Origin: an uncultured Gammaproteobacteria bacterium
GTDB lineage: Bacteria; Patescibacteriota; Microgenomatia; Daviesbacterales; UBA10151
Assembly (NCBI GenBank): GCA_964406775.1
Contig: CAYOSW010000004.1
Span: 7,392-71,391 of the forward strand
Direction of reading: 5' to 3'
DNA: 64,000 nucleotides
Shown here: piece after piece, positions 22,298 through 37,364 of the stretch
Numbering within the stretch: position 1 is the stretch's first letter
Layout: each line of letters starts with the position of its first letter
Program-made: the position numbers and the translations under genes
Notes under the pieces: model-generated
Told to the model about the DNA's origin: nothing
The model's input: the letters and a program-made list of their open reading frames with translations, nothing else
Database searches by the model: none

Positions 22298-23536
22298 CTA
22301 AGGATAGCGCATTTTTGCCTCAGATGGGGAGAGAACTTCTTTAATTGAATGATCATCATTTATTATGACTACCTGTTCCGTCCCGCTGTCCATAGCCAGA
22401 TTTTTAATTTGGATCCCGGGATGAACCGACCGCCAAAAGTAGTAAACAAATTCTTTAATTTGTTCGGGAGTCATACCTTTACCTTTTGCTCTTAAAACCT
22501 CCTCAGCCTGATCCCGCCACTTTAACGAGATTTGATAATCAGGCACATATAAAACATTCATAAATTCAATTAATTCCCAAAGCGGTGTATAAGTATTAAG
22601 TTTTTTATTTATGAATTTAGCAAACGCTCTCGCCTCTTCGGTCTCAAGCGCCGGAAGGCCAGAATCAAAAACCGTCTCATTTGTCACTTCTCTTGCTCCG
22701 ACCATCCATCCGTCATAAAAAATATAGTCCGGTTTTTGCCAAACAACCCTCCAGCCGCGGGGCAGTTCCTTCTTGTCTACAGCGATTTCGTCCTGTCCGC
22801 CGACAAAATAAACCGCTCCGCTGTCTTTTCCTAAAATTGTAATCTGGTTTTGACCGGGAGTATTTAAAAAAGCAATTAATTCATCTGGTAAGAAACCGGA
22901 AAGTACTGGCAAAAAAGAACCCATATCTGAGGGCAGATCCAAATTCCTTCCGGCAAATTCCGAAGCCAGTATTTTTAGGGCAGGAACTTTTTGAAGCTGT
23001 TTATTAATCATCAGTTCAGCCTCTTCAACTTTGGCGATAACCTTCAGATCATCGACAGGATTAATCCAGGCCAGTCTATCCCCGTCACCGCTCTGGATCC
23101 CCTTATCATATCCCGACACCAGCACAGGCTCATCGGTATAGTTAATCAGGTCATTCAAATTTTTAACAGCCAATGGAACATCGTGAGTAACACCTCTTCT
23201 TATGAATCTCGGATCGGAATTCCGCAGACTGGTAAGTTCTTTATGAGTAATATAGTGGTCGTCTATTGAGAGACTGACTGAAGACTTTTTATAAAACCCC
23301 AGCAGTATTTCCAAAATCTCCCCCTGGGTTGTTTTACCGGCTCCCTGGATCGCTGATACCCCAACTACCAGTCCCTTTCCTGAGCCGATTTCTTCTTTCA
23401 GCTTCAATAACTTTTGGACATAAGGTAAATAATAGAGTTCAAGATCTTTTTTTAAAGAATCCGATAAAATTTCCGGTCTTTTTTCGAGCAGAGGTTCAAA
23501 AATTCCGAAATCGGAATCAATATTAAAGTCCATCAC
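22298..23536 (-). CDS. P-loop kinase, D-glycerate 3-kinase (GLYK)-like family
   Basis: Walker A GVSAIQGAGKTT resembles the GxSxPQGxGKTT motif of plant-type glycerate kinases. The C-terminal half is unassigned. Confidence 0.4.
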   Translation of the reverse strand: MMDFNIDSDFGIFEPLLEKRPEILSDSLKKDLELYYLPYVQKLLKLKEEIGSGKGLVVGVSAIQGAGKTTQGEILEILLGFYKKSSVSLSIDDHYITHKELTSLRNSDPRFIRRGVTHDVPLAVKNLNDLINYTDEPVLVSGYDKGIQSGDGDRLAWINPVDDLKVIAKVEEAELMINKQLQKVPALKILASEFAGRNLDLPSDMGSFLPVLSGFLPDELIAFLNTPGQNQITILGKDSGAVYFVGGQDEIAVDKKELPRGWRVVWQKPDYIFYDGWMVGAREVTNETVFDSGLPALETEEARAFAKFINKKLNTYTPLWELIEFMNVLYVPDYQISLKWRDQAEEVLRAKGKGMTPEQIKEFVYYFWRSVHPGIQIKNLAMDSGTEQVVIINDDHSIKEVLSPSEAKMRYP

Positions 23537-23578: not shown

Positions 23579-24346
23579 TTATTGAAGAAGAGAATCGATT
23601 TCAGATTTGAATGCGGCGTATGGCTGAGCTCCGACAACTAATTTTCCTTCAACTTCCGATCCTGTTGATTTGGCGATTATAAAACTGGGGGTACCGGAAG
23701 CTCCGGCATTTCCGGCATCAGCTAAGTCTTTGGCAACTTCATCCTTATATTTTTCAGTGTCCACACAAGTTTTAAAATTATCTACATTTAATCCTTGCTG
23801 TCCAGCAAAAGTATTGAGCTGATCCTTAGTCAAACCGGTTCCGTTCGAGGTAGTATTTTCAAACATAGTATCGTGCAGTTTCCAGTAAGCTTTGTCACCA
23901 CCCTGCTCTCTTGCGCAGTTAGCTGCAATTGCCTCGGTTGTAGCCATAGGATCGTGGAAAGATAAAGGAAGATCGCGGAAAACAATTTTTACTTTTCCGG
24001 TATCAACATAGTCCTTGGTCAGCTGAACGTGAGTTTGATCGTAGTGTCTTTTGCAGAAAGGGCATTCGTAATCCGAGAATTCAACAATCGTAACCGGAGC
24101 ATTAGGATCACCCAAAACAGGATCATCATCAAGCGAAACCTTGACCGGTCCTGTAGGCTCTTCCGGAGCCGCCGCTATCGGGGCTGATGAGGCTGCAGCA
24201 GCAGGTCCTGTACCTGTTGTGCCCGTATTAAATCCTTTGATCTTTACGGCTCCGCCGCTAACCAAAATTGCTATGGAAATAAGGAAGGAGCCTATTAAAA
24301 TTGCTATTGGGGTTGTAACTAAAGGGTTATTCTTTTCCGTTTCCAT
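23579..24346 (-). CDS. DsbA-family thiol:disulfide oxidoreductase (membrane-anchored)
   Basis: N-terminal TM helix, Ala/Pro-rich linker, and the thioredoxin-fold active site YECPFCKRH (CxxC). Confidence 0.7.
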   Translation of the reverse strand: METEKNNPLVTTPIAILIGSFLISIAILVSGGAVKIKGFNTGTTGTGPAAAASSAPIAAAPEEPTGPVKVSLDDDPVLGDPNAPVTIVEFSDYECPFCKRHYDQTHVQLTKDYVDTGKVKIVFRDLPLSFHDPMATTEAIAANCAREQGGDKAYWKLHDTMFENTTSNGTGLTKDQLNTFAGQQGLNVDNFKTCVDTEKYKDEVAKDLADAGNAGASGTPSFIIAKSTGSEVEGKLVVGAQPYAAFKSEIDSLLQ

Positions 24347-24437
24347 AATTATAAGTTGTTTACCGATATTACAGAATCTTCATAACTTTGTAAACCCCGA
24401 ATAAATGTCCGGAGCGTGCCTGCGCCTTGCAAAGTGA

Positions 24438-24650
24438 TTAAGCAGTTTTTACCTGATAACCGGTTTTCTTGATACTCTCAATTAAAACTTCTTCCTGTAT
24501 CTTACTCTCGTCAAACTCTATCTCTGTAAGCTGTTTAGCATAGCTGGTTTTTGATGATTTTACTCCGCTTAAATCCTCCAGATCAAAATCAATATTCATC
24601 GCACAAGCTGTGCAATTCATACCTGAAATTTTAAAAATAACTTTTTTCAT
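24438..24650 (-). CDS. copZ: Copper chaperone CopZ (HMA domain)
   Basis: 70 aa. The GMNCTACA MxCxxC motif is typical of heavy-metal-associated domains. Confidence 0.8.
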   Translation of the reverse strand: MKKVIFKISGMNCTACAMNIDFDLEDLSGVKSSKTSYAKQLTEIEFDESKIQEEVLIESIKKTGYQVKTA

Positions 24651-24652
24651 AG

Positions 24653-25693
24653 TTAAATTACCTCAATCGTTCCCGTATACATCCCCATAGAACACGTAAA
24701 AGCAATTTTCCCTTTTTCCATAGGAGTAAAGGTTAAAACTTCGGTGGTATTGGGCTGGACGTTTTTGCCGATTTTTAAGGAAGGGATCCGGAAAGCAGCT
24801 GCACAATTATAGGCATCTTTTGATACCAGACTCAGGTTAACGGGCACTCCCTGTTTTACTTTAAGATATGTCGGCGAATATCCTTTTGAATTAATCTCAA
24901 TTGTGGCATTTTGGACCCCGTTTTCAACTAACGCCTCCCCGCCGGGAGTTTCCTGGACCGATCCTCCTAATGATATTTCAATAGGAGAGTTCGCATATAA
25001 ATTCTGGAGCGAAAAAGAGGATCCGGAAACGACCAGAGCGCCGTTTAATGAAGTTATCCCGAGGTAAATAACAAGAATTGCCGCCAGTCTTAAGAATCTT
25101 CCGCGAAACTTATCGCCTAAAACCGAAGTTAGGGTTCCGAGTCCGAAAAACAGGGGAGAGGTGCCGAGAATAAAGAAAAACATAATTAACATTCCGTAAA
25201 AAGCACTCCCTGAGGAAATTGCGAGCGCCTCCATTGCAAGTGTGGTACCGCAGGGGATAAAAACAGTCATTGCACCGAGCAGGGCAGGCGCAAAGATATC
25301 TTTTGACTTGGATTGATTTTTGACAAGCCTTGTCAAAAATCTCGGGGGCTGAAAAACTACATACCTAAAAAAAGGATGCACATTCAATAGATTAAACCCG
25401 ACCGCTATCATATAAATTCCCGCGATTCCCTGCATCCAGATCTGGACACTCTGGCTGATATTTAACAGTCCTCCGAAAGCGCCTAGAACAAATCCTAAGA
25501 GGGAATAGGTGATTAGTTTTGAGACGACAAATGCGCCCACAGGCCAGAGGGAATTTTTGATATTTTTTTTAGACTCGATCTCTTTTTCTTCCCTAGCGGC
25601 AATAATTGAGGCTAACAATCCCCCCTGAACGGCAAGACAGGTTAGACCGCCCACAGTCAGGCCCGTTAAAAATATCACCCAAAGATTGGTCAT
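24653..25693 (-). CDS. Integral membrane protein (putative metal permease) with C-terminal cupredoxin-like Cys/Met domain
   Basis: About 230 aa with 6-8 TM helices, then a roughly 110-aa soluble C-terminal domain ending KIAFTCSMGMYTGTIEVI. This resembles a cupredoxin C-terminal strand (F-x-C...GM-x-G). Located between copA and copZ. Confidence 0.35.
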   Translation of the reverse strand: MTNLWVIFLTGLTVGGLTCLAVQGGLLASIIAAREEKEIESKKNIKNSLWPVGAFVVSKLITYSLLGFVLGAFGGLLNISQSVQIWMQGIAGIYMIAVGFNLLNVHPFFRYVVFQPPRFLTRLVKNQSKSKDIFAPALLGAMTVFIPCGTTLAMEALAISSGSAFYGMLIMFFFILGTSPLFFGLGTLTSVLGDKFRGRFLRLAAILVIYLGITSLNGALVVSGSSFSLQNLYANSPIEISLGGSVQETPGGEALVENGVQNATIEINSKGYSPTYLKVKQGVPVNLSLVSKDAYNCAAAFRIPSLKIGKNVQPNTTEVLTFTPMEKGKIAFTCSMGMYTGTIEVI

Positions 25694-27919
25694 TTAAATT
25701 TTTATCCTCTTTAGTAAAAGTGAATTACTTACAACTGAGATTGAGCTGAGAGCCATAGCTGCTGAGGCAAAGATCGGATTCATAAGTATTCCCCAAAACG
25801 GAAATAAAACTCCCATAGCTACGGGAATCAGGACTACATTATAACCGAATGCCCAGAATAAATTCATCTTTATCGTACTCATTGTTTGCTTTGAAAGTTC
25901 AATTGATGAGGCAACAGAACCGAGATCCTTATTAATCAGAGTTATTCCTGCAGCTTCAATAGCCACATCTGTCCCCGTACCCATAGCAATTCCTACATCG
26001 GAAGCGGCAAGAGCAGGCGCATCATTAATCCCGTCACCTACCATAGCCACTATTTTTCCTTCACCCTGAATCTTTTTAACTTCCGATTCTTTATCACCCG
26101 GCAATACCTCTGCCAAAACCCGGCTGATGCCCGCCTGTTTAGCTATTGCCTCCGCAGCACGCCTGTTATCTCCGGTTATCATCACAACTTCAATTTTTTT
26201 ATCCTGCAGGGCTTTAACTCCATCTCTTGCCGAGGGCTTCAGAGTGTCTGCAACCGCAATCAAACCTAAGATTGTCTTACCTTCAGCCAGCACCATAACT
26301 GTTTTCCCTTGACTTTCAAAATCTTCTATCTCTGGGTTAAATTTTGATAAATCAATATTTTCCTTCTCCATCAATTTCGTGTTTCCCAATTTGTAAAACT
26401 GATCTTTAATTATTCCTTCAATTCCAAAGCCTGGTATGGCTTTAAAGTTTCTTACTTCGCTCAGTTTTGAATCATTAAATCTATAGCTCTCTGCTTCTCG
26501 CAAAATAGCTTCAGCCAATGAGTGTTCCGATCCTTTCTCTAATGAGGCTGCAAGATAAAAGAAATCTGCTGACTTCATTTTAGAAGCAAATATTTTGTGA
26601 TCTGTAACTTTCGGTTTACCTATTGTTAGTGTTCCTGTTTTATCAAAGATCACCGTATTAACTTTGTGCGCAATTTCCAGGCTTTGAGCATCCTTTATTA
26701 AAATTCCCCTCTCTGCAGCTTTTCCGGTTCCAACCATTATTGCAGTCGGGGTGGCCAGCCCCATAGCACAGGGGCAAGCGACTACCAGCACACTTATCAA
26801 GCTTATTAGCCCGCCCACATAATCTCCTGCAATAAAAAGCCAGCCTGCAAAAGTCAAAACAGCAATAACCAGTACGGACGGAACAAAATAAGCGGAGACC
26901 TGATCAGCTAATTTTTGAATAGGCGCCTTTGACCCCTGGGCATCCTGAACAAGCTGAATAATTTGCGCCAGCATTGTTTCCGAGCCCACTCTTGTCGCTC
27001 TCATAATAAGGCTTCCTGATTTATTCATTGAAGCACCGATTACAGCATCCCCCTTCCGTTTATCAACCGGAATACTTTCTCCCGTCACTAAAGATTCATC
27101 AACAGACGACTCCCCTTCGGTAATTACGCCGTCAACCGGAATTTTTTCGCCCGGGCGGACTCTAATTAGATTGCCGTGAACGACCTGCTCAATCGGAATA
27201 TCAGCTTCTTTACCGTCTATAATCACCCGGGCAGTTTTAGCCTGCAATCCGATTAATTTTTTGATTGCATCCGAAGTATGTGATTTAGCCCTCGCCTCTA
27301 AAAATTTCCCCAGAGTGATTAATCCGATAACTACAATCGTTACGTCATAATAATTATGTTCGGTGTTTAAATATGGAGCGAGCGATTCTTCGAAAGCTGT
27401 AACTATAAAACTATAGATGAAAGCTACCGATGTACCAATCCCAACCAATGCATCCATATCAGCTCTGCCGTGTCTGATAAATCTCCACATTCCGGCAAGA
27501 TACGGTCTACCCACGGTAAAAAGCATATAAGTCGCAAGCAGAGGTAAGAGATGATGAAAAAATTCTTCGGTAATATTATTCAAAGGCAGAAAAATCTCCC
27601 AAAACATAATTAAAAAGGCAATAGAAACAGCGGAGATCGAAACAAAAACCTGTCCCCTTAAATTTTCAGGATTCTGCATATGATCGTGCCCGGACATTTC
27701 TTTATGAGAGGTGTCCATTACCAATTCGTAACCCGCATTTTTAACTGCCTCAGCCATCTTTTCTTCTGAGGTATGTCCTTTATATTTAATGGTAGCCTTA
27801 TTTGTGGCTATATTTACCGTCGCGTCGTCAACACCCTCTACCTTCCTTAAAGTTCTCTCTATTACATTAACGCAGGAGGCACAGTGCATTCCCCTAACCT
27901 CAAAAGTTTTCTTAGTCAT
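25694..27919 (-). CDS. copA: Copper-translocating P1B-type ATPase
   Basis: N-terminal [14 protein letters not shown] motif [18 protein letters not shown] phosphorylation site, and GDGINDAP hinge. Confidence 0.9.
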
Positions 27920-27921
27920 AG

Positions 27922-28194
27922 CTATTTATTTATCCTTTTAAACAAGGTCACAATTTCGGTCACAGCCTTTTCCTTCTCGTTTTCTATCTGGTGCGCAACG
28001 TGAGTTTCCAGATGCCTTTCCAGTAATAATGTATCCAGACTTTTTAGTGAATTTTGGATTGCCAGGCTCTGGTTTAAAAGATCGATACAATACTCGTTGT
28101 TTTCGATCATTTTCTGCAGGCCTTCAAGCTGGCCTTTAATAATGTTTAGGCGTTTATTTGCGGCCACTTTTACGTCTTCGTAATGTGATTTCAT
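27922..28194 (-). CDS. csoR: CsoR/RcnR-family metal-sensing transcriptional repressor
   Basis: 90 aa all-helical DUF156-type protein with Cys (YCIDLL) and His (HLETHVAH) ligand positions. It sits directly upstream of copA. Confidence 0.8.
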
Positions 28195-28204
28195 AGAGTA
28201 AATG

Positions 28205-28223
28205 TATACCCTAGGGGGGTATA
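28205..28223 (-). promoter_or_regulatory. CsoR operator (GC-rich pseudo-palindrome TATACCCTAGGGGGGTATA) within the csoR-copA promoter spacer
   Basis: An inverted repeat ATACCC...GGGTAT lies 10 bp upstream of the csoR ATG. On the minus strand it sits between a TTGACA -35 (28224-28229 as RC, i.e. the complement of plus-strand tgtcaa at these coordinates) and a TATACA/ATACAT -10. It is nearly identical to the B. subtilis-type CsoR box (TACCCTACGGGGGTA). Confidence 0.6.
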
Positions 28224-28385
28224 TGTCAAGCGGATGGTTTTGATTTGTAGAATCTATTAATTAGAAATTCTGTGTATCTGAATAAAAACATAAACGCCAT
28301 TTGAATTCCCTGGATTATAAAAGCCACAAGAAACATCAGCATAGAAAATAAAAAATCCAGAGGAAGGGCTACAGCCTGGCAGAGG

Positions 28386-29372
28386 TTACACATTCTTTTT
28401 TCTTCTTAGTACTTCTAAAACCGCTTTTTTTATATTCTCCTGGGTTAATCCGAATTTTTTTAGTAGCTCTGCGGGTGTTCCGCTCTCACCGAAGGTGTCT
28501 TCTATTCCGATTCTTTTAATCGGAACCGGGAATGACTCCGAAACAGCCTCTGCAACCGCACCTCCCAACCCTCCGTTTATCTGATGCTCCTCAGCTGTCA
28601 CTATTGCACCTGTTTCCTCAGCTGCATTCAGAATTGTTTTAGTATCTAAAGGTTTAATTGTGTGGTTATTTATTACCCGAACACTTATATTATCCTTTTC
28701 CAGTTCTTTAGCGACTTTTAACGCCATATAAACCATCTGTCCGCAGGCAATTATCGTTACGTCCTTTCCCTGCATTAAGACTTCAGCTTTACCGACTTCA
28801 AAAGGCGAGTTTTCACTTGTGATTGTCGGAACTTTATCGCGGGATAATCTTAAATAGGAAGGTTTACCATTTTTGGCGATGGCCAGAGTGGCTTTTTTAG
28901 CCTCAATCCAATCCGCAGGGACAACAACAACCATATTCGGGAGAACCCGCATCATAGCTATGTCCTCAAGCGCCTGGTGCGTTGCTCCGTCAGGACCGAC
29001 CGAAATTCCGGAGTGTGATCCGACAATTTTTACCGGCTGATTGTTATAGCAGATGGTTGTTCTGATCTGCTCCCAATTTCTTCCGGGTGAAAAAGTGGCA
29101 TAAGACGAGGTAAAAGGGATTTTTCCTTCGTGAGCCATACCGGAGGCAACCGTTACTAAGTTTTGTTCGGCAACTCCGATTTCTATAAACCGCTCGGGAA
29201 ACTTTTTCTTAAAAGCCTCCATCCTGGTTGATTCGGTAAGATCAGCACAAAGCCCAACCACATTAGGATTTTCCTCCCCGGCAATAACCAACCCCTCCCC
29301 GAACCCATCCCTCGAGGGTTTCATTTCAATATCCTCATCAAATAATTTAGGATTTAGGGTAATATTTGTCAT
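28386..29372 (-). CDS. Transketolase, C-terminal subunit (pyrimidine-binding + C-terminal domains)
   Basis: 328 aa that aligns to the C-terminal half of transketolase. The partner N-terminal subunit is 300 bp upstream. Confidence 0.85.
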   Translation of the reverse strand: MTNITLNPKLFDEDIEMKPSRDGFGEGLVIAGEENPNVVGLCADLTESTRMEAFKKKFPERFIEIGVAEQNLVTVASGMAHEGKIPFTSSYATFSPGRNWEQIRTTICYNNQPVKIVGSHSGISVGPDGATHQALEDIAMMRVLPNMVVVVPADWIEAKKATLAIAKNGKPSYLRLSRDKVPTITSENSPFEVGKAEVLMQGKDVTIIACGQMVYMALKVAKELEKDNISVRVINNHTIKPLDTKTILNAAEETGAIVTAEEHQINGGLGGAVAEAVSESFPVPIKRIGIEDTFGESGTPAELLKKFGLTQENIKKAVLEVLRRKKNV

Positions 29373-29373
29373 A

Positions 29374-29664
29374 TTATCTTTTTACATAATTTCTCAAAAA
29401 CCTTCTGTTGATCATAAAGAATAATATAAAAGGAACGATGATAGTAAAGATTTTTAGTATTGGTTGTAAAACAGATGGAATAAAGCAATGACTAAAATCC
29501 AGTTCAGGATTTATAACTACACCAAGACCAGGTAATGGACAAACAAGAACAACATTCTGAAGATTGCTTAACACTAAAAATTGATTATAAAGTAAATCCA
29601 CTGAAAGAAGTAAAAACCAAGTAAAAATAATACTTAAAAGTATTGATAAGATATTTATTGCCAT
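29374..29664 (-). CDS. Hypothetical small hydrophobic protein (96 aa) encoded in an AT-rich spacer between the transketolase halves
   Basis: Two or three predicted TM helices and no SD. The DNA is much more AT-rich than its flanks. Coding status is uncertain. Confidence 0.25.
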   Translation of the reverse strand: MAINILSILLSIIFTWFLLLSVDLLYNQFLVLSNLQNVVLVCPLPGLGVVINPELDFSHCFIPSVLQPILKIFTIIVPFILFFMINRRFLRNYVKR

Positions 29665-29674
29665 AAAATTTAGA

Positions 29675-30562
29675 TTATTCCTTGATACTTTTTATTTTTT
29701 TCTCTAACTCTTCTAACTGTTTCAACGCTTCTTTTGCTTGTTCTCCTTTTGCAGGAGCTCCTTCAATGTCCATCCCGTCCGGTGGTGCACCGTGCCATTC
29801 ATATCTATTTTCCATATAGGAAACTCCTTTTCCGGGGATTGTGTTAGCAATAATCATTGTCGGTTTATCGTATATAACTTTGGCATCCTCGCAGGCATTA
29901 ATTATTTCATCAAAACTGTGACCGTTAATTTCAATTACATTCCAATTAAACGCCCGGTATTTATCGGCAACCGGATCAAGCTTCATAATATCCTCCGTGT
30001 GCCCGTCAATCTGCATATTATTGCGGTCCATTATCACTGTCAGATTTCCCAATTTATAATTGGCGGCAAACATAATTGCTTCCCAGGTATTACCTTCCTG
30101 ATGTTCGCCGTCCGAAGTCACGCAGTAAACACGCCAGGGCTTCTTATCCCGAATCCCGACTAAAGCCATCCCCGCAGCTTGGGATAAACCTGAGCCCAAC
30201 GGACCGGAAGTTGTTTCAAGGCCCGGCAGAGCCTCTCTGTGCGGATGACCCTGCAAGCGGGTTCCAAGTTTGCGCAAAGTCTTCAGCTCATCAACCGGAA
30301 AAAATCCCCTGCGCGCCATAGCCGAATACATAACAGGGCAAATATGTCCGCAGGATAAAACAAACCTATCCCTCTCATCCCAACCGGGTTTTTCCGGATT
30401 TATATTTAAAATTTTGAAGAAAAGAGCGGTAAAAACATCAGCCATCCCCAGAGGTCCGCCTGAATGACCCGAGCCGGCTTCAACCAGCATCTTAATAATA
30501 TCCCGGCGGATTTCATTTGCCTGAAGTTCCAAATCCTTGAATTCGTGCGGGGACAGCTGCAT
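29675..30562 (-). CDS. Transketolase, N-terminal subunit (TPP-binding)
   Basis: The GHSGGPLGMADVF TPP-binding motif. 295 aa. Confidence 0.85.
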   Translation of the reverse strand: MQLSPHEFKDLELQANEIRRDIIKMLVEAGSGHSGGPLGMADVFTALFFKILNINPEKPGWDERDRFVLSCGHICPVMYSAMARRGFFPVDELKTLRKLGTRLQGHPHREALPGLETTSGPLGSGLSQAAGMALVGIRDKKPWRVYCVTSDGEHQEGNTWEAIMFAANYKLGNLTVIMDRNNMQIDGHTEDIMKLDPVADKYRAFNWNVIEINGHSFDEIINACEDAKVIYDKPTMIIANTIPGKGVSYMENRYEWHGAPPDGMDIEGAPAKGEQAKEALKQLEELEKKIKSIKE

Positions 30563-36328: not shown

Positions 36329-36355
36329 TTTTTATCCTCACAAAATTTGGCCACT

Positions 36356-36600
36356 AAAAAAGCCCTTGCTTGCTTACTAGTTTCCTAATAAACAAACAAG
36401 GGCCTTCAAAAGGCGGTTCCACCTTGCTTCATCCGTTACCGGATCTCATTCCCTGACTCCTCCTCGCTGTGCTCTGAGTAAACTTTAAAGTCCACATCGA
36501 ACGAAGTGAGATGACATCAGTTTGTAATATTTTACAGTTTTACTTCTGTAATCCATTTTTGGATTCAGCTCCCGGATCGCAACTCCAGTCAAACGCTTGT
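36356..36600 (-). promoter_or_regulatory. T-box riboswitch leader (promoter, Stem III, T-box antiterminator, intrinsic terminator) upstream of the ATP-grasp operon
   Basis: On the minus strand, TTGACA (-35) is followed 17 nt later by ATATAA (-10). Stem III hairpin AUCCG-GUAA-CGGAU. T-box core GCAAGGUGGAACCGCC (plus-strand coordinates 36412-36427) matches the consensus AGGGUGGNACCGCG. Antiterminator: A1 CAAGG/CCUUG, 7-nt bulge UGGAACC, A2 GCC-UUUUGAA-GGC. Competing terminator: a 19-bp stem (three G-U wobbles) with GAAA loop and U6, plus-strand coordinates 36356-36404. Confidence 0.7.
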
Positions 36601-36719
36601 AAGTGTTTTATATCAAACTTTAGGCTCGGATGTCAACTATCCCTATTTTTTGAATGCTGATAGAAAACTCCACATCGTAATTATTTGGAATATACATAAT
36701 TTGCAGTAAAATACCGAAT

Positions 36720-36923
36720 ATGAACGAGATAGTAAAAAATTATGTGCAGAACTTCAGGACTGCCAGAAAAATGACTCAAGAAGATCTTGCACGGACCATA
36801 GGAGTAACTAGACAAACAATTATCGCAATTGAAAAGGGTAACTACACACCATCAGTCTTGTTAGCGTTAAAAATTGCCAAGTTCTTTAAGTCTTCTGTTG
36901 AAAAAATATTTAGATTAGAATAG
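36720..36923 (+). CDS. XRE-family helix-turn-helix transcriptional regulator
   Basis: 67 aa. MTQEDLARTIGVTRQTIIAIEKGNYTPSVLLALKIAKFF is a canonical Cro/C1 HTH. Confidence 0.85.
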   Translation: MNEIVKNYVQNFRTARKMTQEDLARTIGVTRQTIIAIEKGNYTPSVLLALKIAKFFKSSVEKIFRLE

Positions 36924-36930
36924 ACATACT

Positions 36931-37284
36931 ATGCTCACTGAAACATTAACACTAATAATTATTTTCATTATTGCAATTATTTTTTTGAATCCGGGCCATC
37001 TGGCAATGCCTGATACAATCAATTCAATTTTAATATTCGGGTTTATTTTAGCGTTCCTAATCTTTGCTGCATTCATTATTCGCGAAAAATCATCCGACGA
37101 GAGAGAGTCTTTACATATACTAAAAGCCGGCCGGCTATCCTACTTAACGGGGGTGGGGGTATTAGTTTTGGGAATAATTTTCCAGGCACTTAAACACGAG
37201 GTAGATCCCTGGTTAGTCTTGGCAATATGTGCTATGACCCTATCAAAGATAATCTCTAGAATATATTCAAGATTCAAACTCTGA
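36931..37284 (+). CDS. Small polytopic membrane protein, conserved partner of XRE-type regulators (DUF2178-like arrangement)
   Basis: 117 aa with 3-4 TM helices. Starts 8 nt after the HTH gene stop. Confidence 0.45.
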   Translation: MLTETLTLIIIFIIAIIFLNPGHLAMPDTINSILIFGFILAFLIFAAFIIREKSSDERESLHILKAGRLSYLTGVGVLVLGIIFQALKHEVDPWLVLAICAMTLSKIISRIYSRFKL

Positions 37285-37364
37285 GTCATTTTAGCCTTAG
37301 GATGTAAAGCGTACTTGACATTATGTTTCCAGCGGGGCTAGAATAATTTCAAGGGGGTGAGTTT

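Follow-up and report, generated by a model that had tools for sequence, protein, structure and literature searches.

A Patescibacteria copper-efflux operon with a DsbD_2-cupredoxin fusion gene between copA and copZ and a candidate CsoR operator in its promoter spacer

What might a 346-aa membrane protein ending in a cupredoxin domain do between the Cu(I) pump and the copper chaperone of a copper operon, and how is such an operon controlled? We addressed this question for one locus in a 64 kb window, the whole stretch of DNA analyzed, whose numbering is used throughout. Four minus-strand genes follow one another with junctions of 0–2 nt: csoR (27922–28194; 90 aa, a CsoR/RcnR-family repressor), copA (25694–27919; 741 aa, a P1B-1 Cu(I)-exporting ATPase with one N-terminal HMA domain), the gene of the 346-aa fusion protein (24653–25693, with its stop codon at 24653–24655; DsbD_2 plus Cupredoxin_1) and copZ (24438–24650; 70 aa, a cytoplasmic HMA copper chaperone). 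In particular, copA starts 2 nt past the csoR stop. A gap of 91 nt separates copZ from a further minus-strand gene (23579–24346) encoding a DsbA-like thiol-disulfide oxidoreductase of 255 aa. Every gene assignment is backed by Pfam and NCBIfam profile matches, and all sequence features reported in a first-pass annotation of this DNA were found where it had placed them. The locus is a copper-efflux/detoxification operon of a Patescibacteria (CPR) bacterium.

The repressor, the pump and the chaperone could each be assigned from profiles and motifs. CsoR matched PF02583 with 78.4 bits (cut-off 22.8), and its nearest solved relatives are CsoRs (E 2e-13 to 1.5e-9). CopA matched TIGR01511 with 623.6 bits (cut-off 397) as well as the Pfam families E1-E2_ATPase, Hydrolase and HMA. 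Its translation carries CPC, N-x6-YN-x4-P and P-x6-M-x2-SS-x5-N, the transmembrane motifs that define the P1B-1 group. CopZ matched PF00403 with 50.3 bits (cut-off 24.8) and fell below the cut-offs of the NCBIfam equivalog CopZ models; it has the MxCxxC motif of an HMA chaperone, as GMNCTAC at residues 10–16, soon after the start and without a signal peptide.

We then considered the control region. A promoter scan returned TTGACA-17-TACATT as the top match in the region (10/12 positions), with the −35 hexamer at 28224–28229 and the −10 hexamer at 28201–28206, both on the minus strand. The candidate CsoR operator TATACCCTAGGGGGGTATA (28205–28223, 19 bp, unstranded) fills the space between them. 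Read on the coding strand, it is a 7-bp inverted repeat (TATACCC, GGGTATA) around a 5-bp centre (CCCTA) that spans the 17-nt spacer and extends over the first two −10 bases, thereby joining a G/C tract and TAC...GTA inverted-repeat flanks to promoter overlap. The box, TATACCCCCCTAGGGTATA, agrees fully with the CsoR-box consensus TATACCCnnnnnGGGTATA in the literature (PMC5057107) and with the TAC-N9-GTA rule, a pattern needed for binding by Streptomyces lividans CsoR (PMC3902906). The operator scan that had been proposed for this DNA, run on the 64 kb window, found one copy only, even with 3 mismatches allowed (about 0.01 chance matches expected). The placement of the box in the spacer is conserved in six relatives (L001, L007, L024, L026, L033 and L065), all with TTGACA directly 5′ of it, and the distance from −10 to ATG is 6–7 nt in all six, though the bases between differ. 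The sequence data thus support the 19-bp box as a CsoR operator in the −35/−10 spacer, and the first-pass proposal to this effect gains from the exact consensus fit, the uniqueness in the window and the retention in relatives. The TTGACA and the short gap to the ATG were also borne out; the −10 had been read as ATACAT, one base off TACATT, a difference that leaves the conclusion unchanged.

Only 6 nt (TACTCT) lie between the −10 hexamer (TACATT) and the csoR ATG. This spacing alone would place the cop transcription start on the ATG's A or no more than 1 nt away from it, and a start there would yield a leaderless mRNA; open reading frame inspection found no in-frame start codon upstream of the csoR ATG. 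A leaderless csoR transcript, as previously suggested, is most likely, in keeping with the spacing retained in the six relatives. Among 30 operon-leading genes in the window, eight show a −10-like hexamer exactly 6 nt upstream of their start codon; window-wide, such hexamers peak at exactly this distance and Shine-Dalgarno sites are few, and the source genome looks leaderless at many genes. By 5′-RACE, Mesorhizobium NreA has been reported to combine a spacer-located CsoR-family operator with a leaderless mRNA (PMC12724321), and Bradyrhizobium csoR to have a leaderless transcript (PMC5057107). Because published CsoR-family cases have both features and the genome looks widely leaderless, the regulatory part of the cop locus is real but ordinary, with neither the spacer operator nor the leaderless start being unusual.

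The 346-aa protein comprises a DsbD_2 domain (PF13386, residues 7–213, E 9e-34) followed by a Cupredoxin_1 domain (PF13473, residues 258–343, E 3e-15). The membrane domain (residues 1–223; 25025–25693, minus strand) has six helices in an AlphaFold2 model of moderate confidence (pLDDT 72), corresponding to the homologous six-helix core of DsbD and CcdA, and contains an invariant C19 in helix 1 and an invariant P147-C148 in helix 4. DsbD_TM was also matched in 14 of 55 extended relatives (best E 2.7e-13). Alignment to E. coli DsbD with hhalign gave 82% probability (E 1e-5) and put P147-C148 on the catalytic (Ser-)Pro-Cys; helix 1, which has Thr-Cys and not Pro-Cys, lies outside this match. The domain had earlier been called a permease, a label that is not established given its homology to the DsbD/CcdA electron-transfer domain.

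The C-terminal domain (residues 251–346; 24656–24943, minus strand), which ends in KIAFTCSMGMYTGTIEVI, has a cupredoxin fold closest to CupA, with family-profile comparison giving E 2.5e-17 to CupA and E 3e-14 to the CopA metal-binding domain (MBD). Residues C297 and C334-S-M336-G-M338 align with the CupA/CopA-MBD ligands Cys74, Cys111, Met113 and Met115. In a set of 40 sequences with 31–56% identity, C19, P147-C148, C297 and C334 never vary, and conservation of the methionines M336 and M338 is at least 90%. The earlier description of a cupredoxin that has Cys/Met ligands but lacks the His therefore agrees with the CupA match and the aligned invariant ligands, and the absent His, judged from this alignment, is no defect but the signature of a predicted CupA-type Cu(I) site (Cys, Cys-x-Met-x-Met). 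A predicted location of this domain outside the cytoplasm is strongly supported. Lys and Arg number about 11 in loops 1, 3 and 5 versus about 0.3 in the N-terminus and loops 2 and 4. In fifteen relatives an N-terminal HMA domain is attached through just one additional helix, and the linkers displayed carry basic residues toward the HMA domain.

The family is widespread. Among related loci, copZ immediately follows the fusion gene in 73 of 76 and copA immediately precedes it in 46 of 68, and a few (e.g., L037, L082 and L084) have the fusion-copZ pair without a nearby copA. HMA was the only extra fused domain found in 55 extended relatives (17 of them), none of which had a fused thioredoxin domain; one HMA-fused variant, in L087, occurs without a separate copZ. 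The gene had been described as not a standard cop component. This is correct of textbook systems; in this lineage, however, copA-fusion-copZ is the standard layout. Small CupA-like proteins exist separately in relatives (e.g., L004, 3415–3774); there is none in the window. A literature search found no published study of the 346-aa protein family, which is annotated as sulfite exporter.

The DsbA-like protein matched PF13462 (104.7 bits) and PF01323 (59.7 bits). It has an N-terminal hydrophobic segment that can serve as a membrane anchor, an Ala/Pro-rich linker, and a thioredoxin fold with a CPFC site (ECPFC) and the cis-Pro loop GTP (GTPSF). Its nearest solved structures are 4PWP/4PWO (deposited as DsbA, E 1e-18) and BdbD, within a range extending to E 9e-16, and ScsC-type copper-resistance proteins match more weakly (E 2e-7 to 9e-5). 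Homology to lipoproteins (NF041057) suggests that it resides on the outer face. Upstream of the gene is a promoter-like element, TTTACA-17-TAATAT (24366–24394, minus strand), whose scan match of 9/12 is not above chance by itself; the window shares GGTTTACAA and TGTAATATC with L007 and L009, with a spacer that varies. The box search of the 64 kb window found no CsoR box at this gene. In 7 of 80 related loci a DsbA-like gene adjoins the fusion gene or copZ within 150 nt, in several positions, and in L087 such genes occur twice, on both sides of the cluster; most related loci lack one. Because of the 91-nt gap and its own conserved promoter-like element, the gene is a neighbor and not a proven member of the CsoR-controlled transcript. 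Its first-pass description as membrane-anchored with a CPFC site is retained.

Taken together, we consider it probable that this is a CsoR-regulated copper-efflux locus in which the 346-aa protein forms a transmembrane cysteine relay between CopZ and the external CupA-like site. Apo-CsoR would bind the single box filling the −35/−10 spacer and block RNA polymerase; Cu(I) binding would release CsoR, allowing transcription to begin at the csoR ATG or one base away at most, and translation of the three genes behind csoR would be coupled over their 0–2-nt junctions. We infer from sequence that the cop operon responds to copper. CopZ would bind cytoplasmic Cu(I) and the P1B-1 ATPase CopA would pump Cu(I) out, with the 346-aa protein as an accessory part whose DsbD/CcdA-like domain is fused to an outward CupA-type Cu(I) site, permitting Cys-to-Cys transfer across the membrane between the cytoplasmic HMA protein CopZ and that site. 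In the version we prefer, tentatively and with a little less than even confidence, Cu(I) itself would pass outward from CopZ through the membrane cysteines to the external site, by analogy with the MerP-MerT-MerA mercury relay in reverse. Cu(I) released by CopA may be captured at the external CupA-like site as well. The exposed cysteines would have their redox state controlled by the DsbA-like protein, which apparently has a promoter of its own and an outer-face anchor. Counting against a Cu(I) relay, there is no obvious energy source, and DsbD/CcdA homologues carry electrons, not metals. We hold it possible, though rather doubtful, that the DsbD_2-cupredoxin protein and its HMA partner constitute a previously unrecognized copper-handling machine, that is, a cysteine relay moving Cu(I), or reducing power for a Cu(I) site, with the DsbA-like protein and without ATP. 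If true, the relay would be a standard copper-resistance component across Patescibacteria and Chloroflexota, and a DsbD/CcdA-fold domain would be able to take an HMA metallochaperone as its cytoplasmic partner.

The same protein could instead move electrons. In this somewhat unlikely reading, the membrane domain would work like DsbD, CcdA and ScsB, carrying electrons rather than copper from the cytoplasm to the outside and keeping the external CupA-like cysteines reduced, either to bind Cu(I) expelled by CopA or to reduce Cu(II); electrons may also go to the DsbA-like protein. The whole arrangement would then parallel Salmonella ScsB-ScsC-CueP, or the three modules of DsbD, but be dedicated to copper. 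The DsbD_2 match, the DsbD_TM matches among relatives, the alignment of P147-C148 with the DsbD catalytic Pro-Cys and the single invariant cysteine in each of helices 1 and 4 all favor electrons, as do the DsbA-like genes close by in some loci and flanking the cluster in L087, and the detectable homology of ScsC-type copper-resistance proteins to the DsbA-like protein. CupA cysteines reduce Cu(II) and then require a further reductant (PMC5646241). The DsbD/CcdA homology, the DsbA-like neighbors and Cu(II) reduction by CupA fit an electron relay at least as well as a Cu(I) relay. However, the near-universal partner is an HMA copper chaperone, the domains found fused to it in the 55 extended relatives are HMA and never thioredoxin, helix 1 lacks the Pro-Cys motif of DsbD/CcdA and falls outside the hhalign match, the DsbA-like protein is nearest to 4PWP/4PWO and Bacillus subtilis BdbD, not to reductases, and most loci have no DsbA-like gene. 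Transport in the opposite direction, with the external cupredoxin capturing copper and handing it inward to CopZ, or supply of copper to an extracellular or membrane cuproprotein, is very improbable. The architecture does mirror the mercury import relay MerP-MerT-NmerA, and some fusion-copZ pairs stand without a nearby copA; but in the window the gene, flanked by copA and copZ at 0–2-nt junctions, belongs to a CsoR-repressed operon and would therefore be induced by copper excess, copA is directly upstream in most loci, and CPR bacteria are not known for having many cuproenzymes. That the database names are right, making this a TauE/SafE exporter of sulfite or organosulfonate unrelated to copper, deserves almost no credence: beyond the source names on homologues, there was no TauE Pfam match at E ≤ 0.01 (only DsbD_2 and Cupredoxin_1 were reported), the protein has a CupA-type Cu(I) domain with conserved ligands, and its gene is set between copA and copZ across lineages. 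Domain and gene-context data contradict the TauE/SafE identity.

The ligand set of the repressor deserves attention. Alignment to solved CsoRs gives C36-H61-H65, a C-H-H type: of the x-Cys-His-Cys fingerprint (C36, H61 and C65 in Mycobacterium tuberculosis), C36 and H61 are present and position 65 is His. The first-pass annotation did not remark on this exchange of the second Cu(I)-ligand Cys for His. Because the His replaces Cys at the third ligand position, the metal selectivity of the repressor is not certain. The protein might sense another metal, such as Ni or Co, or several metals, C-H-H being nearer to RcnR than to canonical CsoR; RcnR uses a Cys-His-His ligand set. The substitution recurs in 11 of 42 related regulators, and the Ni sensor NreA has a similar operator layout. 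Nevertheless, we judge a non-copper sensor improbable, as all the regulated genes are copper-specific, the top NCBIfam match is the copper sensor RicR (56 bits versus 35 for RcnR), and His4 is not conserved within the C-H-H class of the 42-relative ligand survey. Moreover, Thermus thermophilus CsoR, with His at the same position, has been described as a bona fide repressor of a copper operon, copZ-csoR-copA (PMC10318464).

Compared with known systems, the regulatory part shares its 19-bp TATACCC-N5-GGGTATA box, with TAC-N9-GTA, with the CsoRs of S. lividans, Corynebacterium glutamicum and Bradyrhizobium and with Mesorhizobium NreA, where the operator likewise overlaps the core promoter; it differs in its CPR host and its C-H-H rather than C-H-C repressor, and is known here from sequence alone. 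T. thermophilus CsoR (TTHA1719, PDB 3AAI) has the same His in place of the second ligand Cys, but its overall similarity to the window CsoR is weak (phmmer E 5.8e-10, 42.7 bits) and its operator is a long G/C-rich pseudopalindrome, CCCCACCCCACCTGGGGTGGGG, whereas the window box is of the TATACCC type. The DsbA-like protein shares the CPFC motif with the 4PWP/4PWO chains, which together with B. subtilis BdbD we take to be housekeeping oxidases of Gram-positives, membrane-anchored on the outer face; unlike them, its gene recurs beside copper genes.

For the fusion protein, the external site is best compared with Streptococcus pneumoniae CupA and the N-terminal cupredoxin domain of S. pneumoniae CopA (PDB 4F2E, 2MRY and 4F2F), which have the same Cys...Cys-x-Met-x-Met Cu(I) ligands, and CupA too is encoded in a cop operon. 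However, CupA has one N-terminal membrane helix and is modeled on the cytoplasmic side feeding CopA, an arrangement not found in the fusion protein, whose cupredoxin follows a six-helix domain with a Cys pair and has a predicted external location; the window CopA has an ordinary HMA domain in place of the N-terminal cupredoxin. DsbD, CcdA and ScsB share the homologous membrane domain with cysteines in helices 1 and 4, and they and Salmonella Scs-CueP, a copper-tolerance system, resemble the window in having thioredoxin-fold partner genes nearby and a link to copper stress. The fusion protein differs in having an HMA chaperone as its apparent cytoplasmic partner, rather than thioredoxin, and a Cu(I)-binding cupredoxin as its external domain, not the alpha or gamma domain of DsbD. 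Finally, MerP-MerT-MerA follows the logic of the Cu(I)-relay reading, with an external metal-binding domain, membrane cysteines and an internal HMA domain, and differs in its unrelated membrane fold, its external HMA instead of a cupredoxin, and its import direction.

The first-pass annotation had read a copper operon with an additional membrane protein and a DsbA-like gene at 23579-28235, and we confirmed five minus-strand genes there, with their families backed by profile searches. csoR (28194..27922, 90 aa) matched PF02583, and copA (27919..25694, 741 aa), which has one HMA domain, scored 623.6 bits against TIGR01511, the copper-ATPase subfamily model (cut-off 397). The next gene (25693..24653) encodes a 346-aa membrane protein combining DsbD_2 (residues 7-213) with Cupredoxin_1 (residues 258-343). 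It is followed by copZ (24650..24438, 70 aa), an HMA protein by profile search, and by the DsbA-like gene (24346..23579, 255 aa), which matched the Thioredoxin_4 and DSBA profiles. From csoR to copZ the intergenic gaps are 2, 0 and 2 nt, and the DsbA-like gene lies 91 nt beyond copZ. Named homologues placed the organism within Patescibacteria, near Levy- and Daviesbacteria. A 55-aa ORF at 28226-28393 was dismissed as spurious, given its overlap with the promoter region and its lack of a Pfam match, and Rfam and tRNA scans of the window returned a single tRNA-Gln, far from the cop locus, and nothing else. Elsewhere in the window, the DsbA-like gene and a PfkB-family sugar kinase flank an ORF of 412 aa (22298-23536, minus strand) that has a Walker-A-like GAGKTT motif and no Pfam match at E <= 1e-3. 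A very hydrophobic 96-aa ORF with no Pfam match (29374-29664, minus strand) is wedged between split transketolase halves (29675-30562 and 28386-29372), and about 1 kb at 36329-37364 holds no ORF of at least 120 aa and no Rfam or tRNA match.

The C-terminal domain of the 346-aa protein matched the metal-binding domain of Streptococcus pneumoniae CopA (E 1e-8) and CupA (E 3e-7) in sequence searches, and a family profile gave 2.5e-17 for CupA and 3.3e-14 for the CopA domain. The N-terminal domain is, by profile comparison, homologous to the DsbD/CcdA membrane domain; DsbD_TM was also matched by 14 of 55 relatives. It has six helices, with an invariant C19 in helix 1 and an invariant P147-C148 in a kinked helix 4. 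In an hhalign comparison with E. coli DsbD (82% probability), P147-C148 fell on the catalytic Ser-Pro-Cys, while helix 1, which lacks a Pro-Cys motif, lay outside the alignment. Mean Lys+Arg counts were 2.9, 5.8 and 2.2 in loops 1, 3 and 5, against about 0.3 in total for the N-terminus and loops 2 and 4, so that the N-terminus and the cupredoxin domain are both predicted to lie outside. Longer relatives bear on the same point. An N-terminal HMA domain is present in 17/55 of them, and the 15 HMA-fused relatives that could be placed have one hydrophobic segment linking the HMA domain to helix 1, and in the linkers inspected the basic residues flank it on the side of the HMA domain; others carry a basic tail and one extra helix in place of the HMA domain. 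HMA domains are cytoplasmic, so the predicted arrangement starts with HMA on the inside, continues through one extra helix and the six helices and ends with cupredoxin outside, which would independently support the external placement.

We then examined how widespread this protein is and what surrounds it. At 50% identity, the family comprises 4394 clusters at E <= 1e-3, of which 377 reach E <= 1e-30, and no study of the protein turned up in literature searches on it, its domains and the copper genes of Patescibacteria. Gene context was counted in 80 loci on contigs chosen at one genome per species; most were from Patescibacteria, some from Chloroflexota and one from an Acidobacteriota. In this sample, copZ lay directly downstream of the fusion gene in 73 of 76 informative loci and copA directly upstream in 46 of 68. 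The protein had been described as an extra, non-standard cop component; this is true of textbook systems, but these counts make it a conserved copper-operon component in this lineage. Operons of relatives frequently include DUF305 proteins and a small CupA-like protein encoded by its own gene, both absent from the window operon. In two related loci, the stretch between csoR and copA encodes one or two DUF305/DUF4142 proteins as well as a separate CupA-like protein of 119 aa that has an N-terminal helix (L001, 2474-3662; L004, 2724-3774). Among loci L008-L086, this operon of a typically Patescibacteria-like kind occurs in many MAGs whose titles read 'uncultured Gammaproteobacteria' or 'Pseudomonadales', with proteins 45-62% identical to those of the window; the titles look like placeholder or wrong taxonomy.

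A DsbA-like gene lay within 150 nt in 7 of the 80 loci, at varying positions: it may follow copZ, separate copA from the fusion gene or immediately precede the fusion gene. Its recurrence beside the fusion gene argues for a functional link. In L087 (4268-10666), a distant relative of 606 aa with a fused HMA domain sits in the order DsbA-like gene, fusion, copA (a 929-aa copper ATPase), DsbA-like gene, in a cluster with no separate copZ; a two-component system lies upstream of it in place of csoR. Among solved structures, the 255-aa DsbA-like protein of the window was closest to chains 4PWP/4PWO, deposited as DsbA and sharing the CPFC motif, with Bacillus subtilis BdbD also close and ScsC-type copper-resistance proteins matching more weakly. 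Upstream of its gene lies a promoter-like element, GGTTTACAA-N12-TGTAATATC (24366-24394), both halves of which are kept in the copZ-DsbA intergenic regions of the window and two related loci (L007, L009) with a varying spacer. The window search found no CsoR box upstream of this gene, and the scanner found no terminator between it and copZ. Given these features, the gene is probably transcribed from a promoter of its own, perhaps with read-through from that of the cop operon. The 99-nt intergenic RNA folded no better than shuffled sequence (z 0.01).

The domains, ligands, topology and neighbours of the family point to copper handling on the external side of the membrane. The proposed mechanism is a Cys-to-Cys relay across the membrane, which would connect a cytoplasmic HMA CxxC with the external CupA-type site and work inside a CsoR-controlled Cu(I) efflux system. 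What would be relayed has two candidate answers. The near-constant HMA partner, the HMA fusions and the absence of thioredoxin fusions among the 55 relatives examined favour Cu(I) itself being handed outward, a reading we prefer tentatively, at somewhat short of an even chance. Alternatively, electrons might be passed across the membrane to keep the external cysteines reduced; we consider this somewhat less probable, with the DsbD homology of the membrane domain, the DsbA-like neighbours and the need of the CupA cysteines for a reductant, called unknown in the literature (PMC5646241), on its side. Sequence data cannot separate the two. That the protein is an importer is less likely, as is a role as a sulfite exporter, the label the family bears in the database; clusters of the HMA-fused relatives are named only 'sulfite exporter TauE/SafE family protein' or not at all.

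The regulatory interpretation of the first-pass annotation, a CsoR box within the promoter of an apparently leaderless csoR, proved right on box fit, promoter layout and conservation, although the design itself is already known. The coding strand 5' of csoR reads TTGACA-TATACCCCCCTAGGGTA-TACATT-TACTCT-ATG, and TTGACA/TACATT was the best sigma-70-type match of the region in a promoter scan. The 19-bp box (28205-28223) is an exact instance of the consensus TATACCCnnnnnGGGTATA reported for CsoR of Bradyrhizobium and Corynebacterium glutamicum (PMC5057107). It also contains the TAC-N9-GTA repeat needed for DNA binding by Streptomyces lividans CsoR and closely resembles the S. lividans copZA operators (PMC3902906). 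A genome scan for further operator copies had been proposed as a check; a search of the 64 kb window at up to 3 mismatches found this single occurrence, with 0.01 expected by chance. A scanner listed the box as terminator-like, which we rejected because the T-run is poor and the box lies inside a conserved promoter. Six loci had a CsoR 70-90% identical to the window protein and a readable start region (L001, L007, L024, L026, L033, L065). All have TTGACA followed directly by the box, a 17-nt spacer and a TAtnAT -10, with the ATG 6-7 nt past the -10 and differing intervening bases. Because this layout is shared and no in-frame start codon lies upstream of the csoR ATG, the csoR mRNA is most likely leaderless. 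A Shine-Dalgarno-like 4-mer precedes only 13 of 59 window genes, with a spacing of 9-13 nt that is unusually long. Thirty genes follow a gap of 20 nt or more, and eight of these carry a -10-like hexamer at exactly 6 nt upstream of the start codon (for example, starts at 30562, 32595, 48750, 50930 and 53388), a sharp single-offset peak. Leaderless mRNAs are thus probably common in this genome, and leaderless initiation looks habitual here, not peculiar to the cop operon.

The repressor has Cys36 and His61, with His65 replacing the second Cu(I)-ligand Cys of canonical CsoR, a point absent from the earlier reading. His also occupies this position in Thermus thermophilus CsoR, which has been validated as a copZ-csoR-copA repressor (PMC10318464). 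A non-copper sensor is less likely: the regulated genes are copper-specific, so we retain the reading of a putative copper sensor. His4 was not counted as an RcnR-like N-terminal ligand, since it is not conserved in the C-H-H class. Related regulators divided into C-H-H (11/42), which goes with a TATACCC box in the spacer, and C-H-C (31/42), most of which have an ATATCCC...GGGGATAT box downstream of the -10, abutting the ATG. This second CPR promoter design was seen in nine loci, all C-H-C (L004, L010, L015, L018, L019, L031, L041, L048, L058), where ATATCCC-N5-GGGGATAT directly abuts the csoR ATG, so that the implied leader, about 12 nt long, would consist of operator sequence; no Shine-Dalgarno site is present. 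The box resembles the Mesorhizobium NreA operator TATCC...GGATA.

The membrane protein, rather than the regulation, is the useful part of this finding: a conserved, unstudied and mis-annotated copper-operon component in this lineage. It is a candidate answer to what takes up Cu(I) outside single-membrane cells and to how the cysteines of a CupA-type site stay reduced, for which the CupA literature names no known reductant (PMC5646241), and in it the pairing of a DsbD-fold domain with a metallochaperone can be tested cleanly. The regulation contributes little, being a known CsoR operator and leaderless design extended to CPR bacteria: for NreA, a CsoR/RcnR-family repressor, 5'-RACE established an operator within the -35/-10 spacer together with a leaderless mRNA (PMC12724321), and leaderless csoR was shown in Bradyrhizobium (PMC5057107). 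The 346-aa protein joins a CupA-type Cu(I) site to a DsbD-fold membrane domain, known modules in a new topology: pneumococcal CupA has been modelled as feeding CopA from the cytoplasmic side, whereas here the cupredoxin domain is predicted to face outward.
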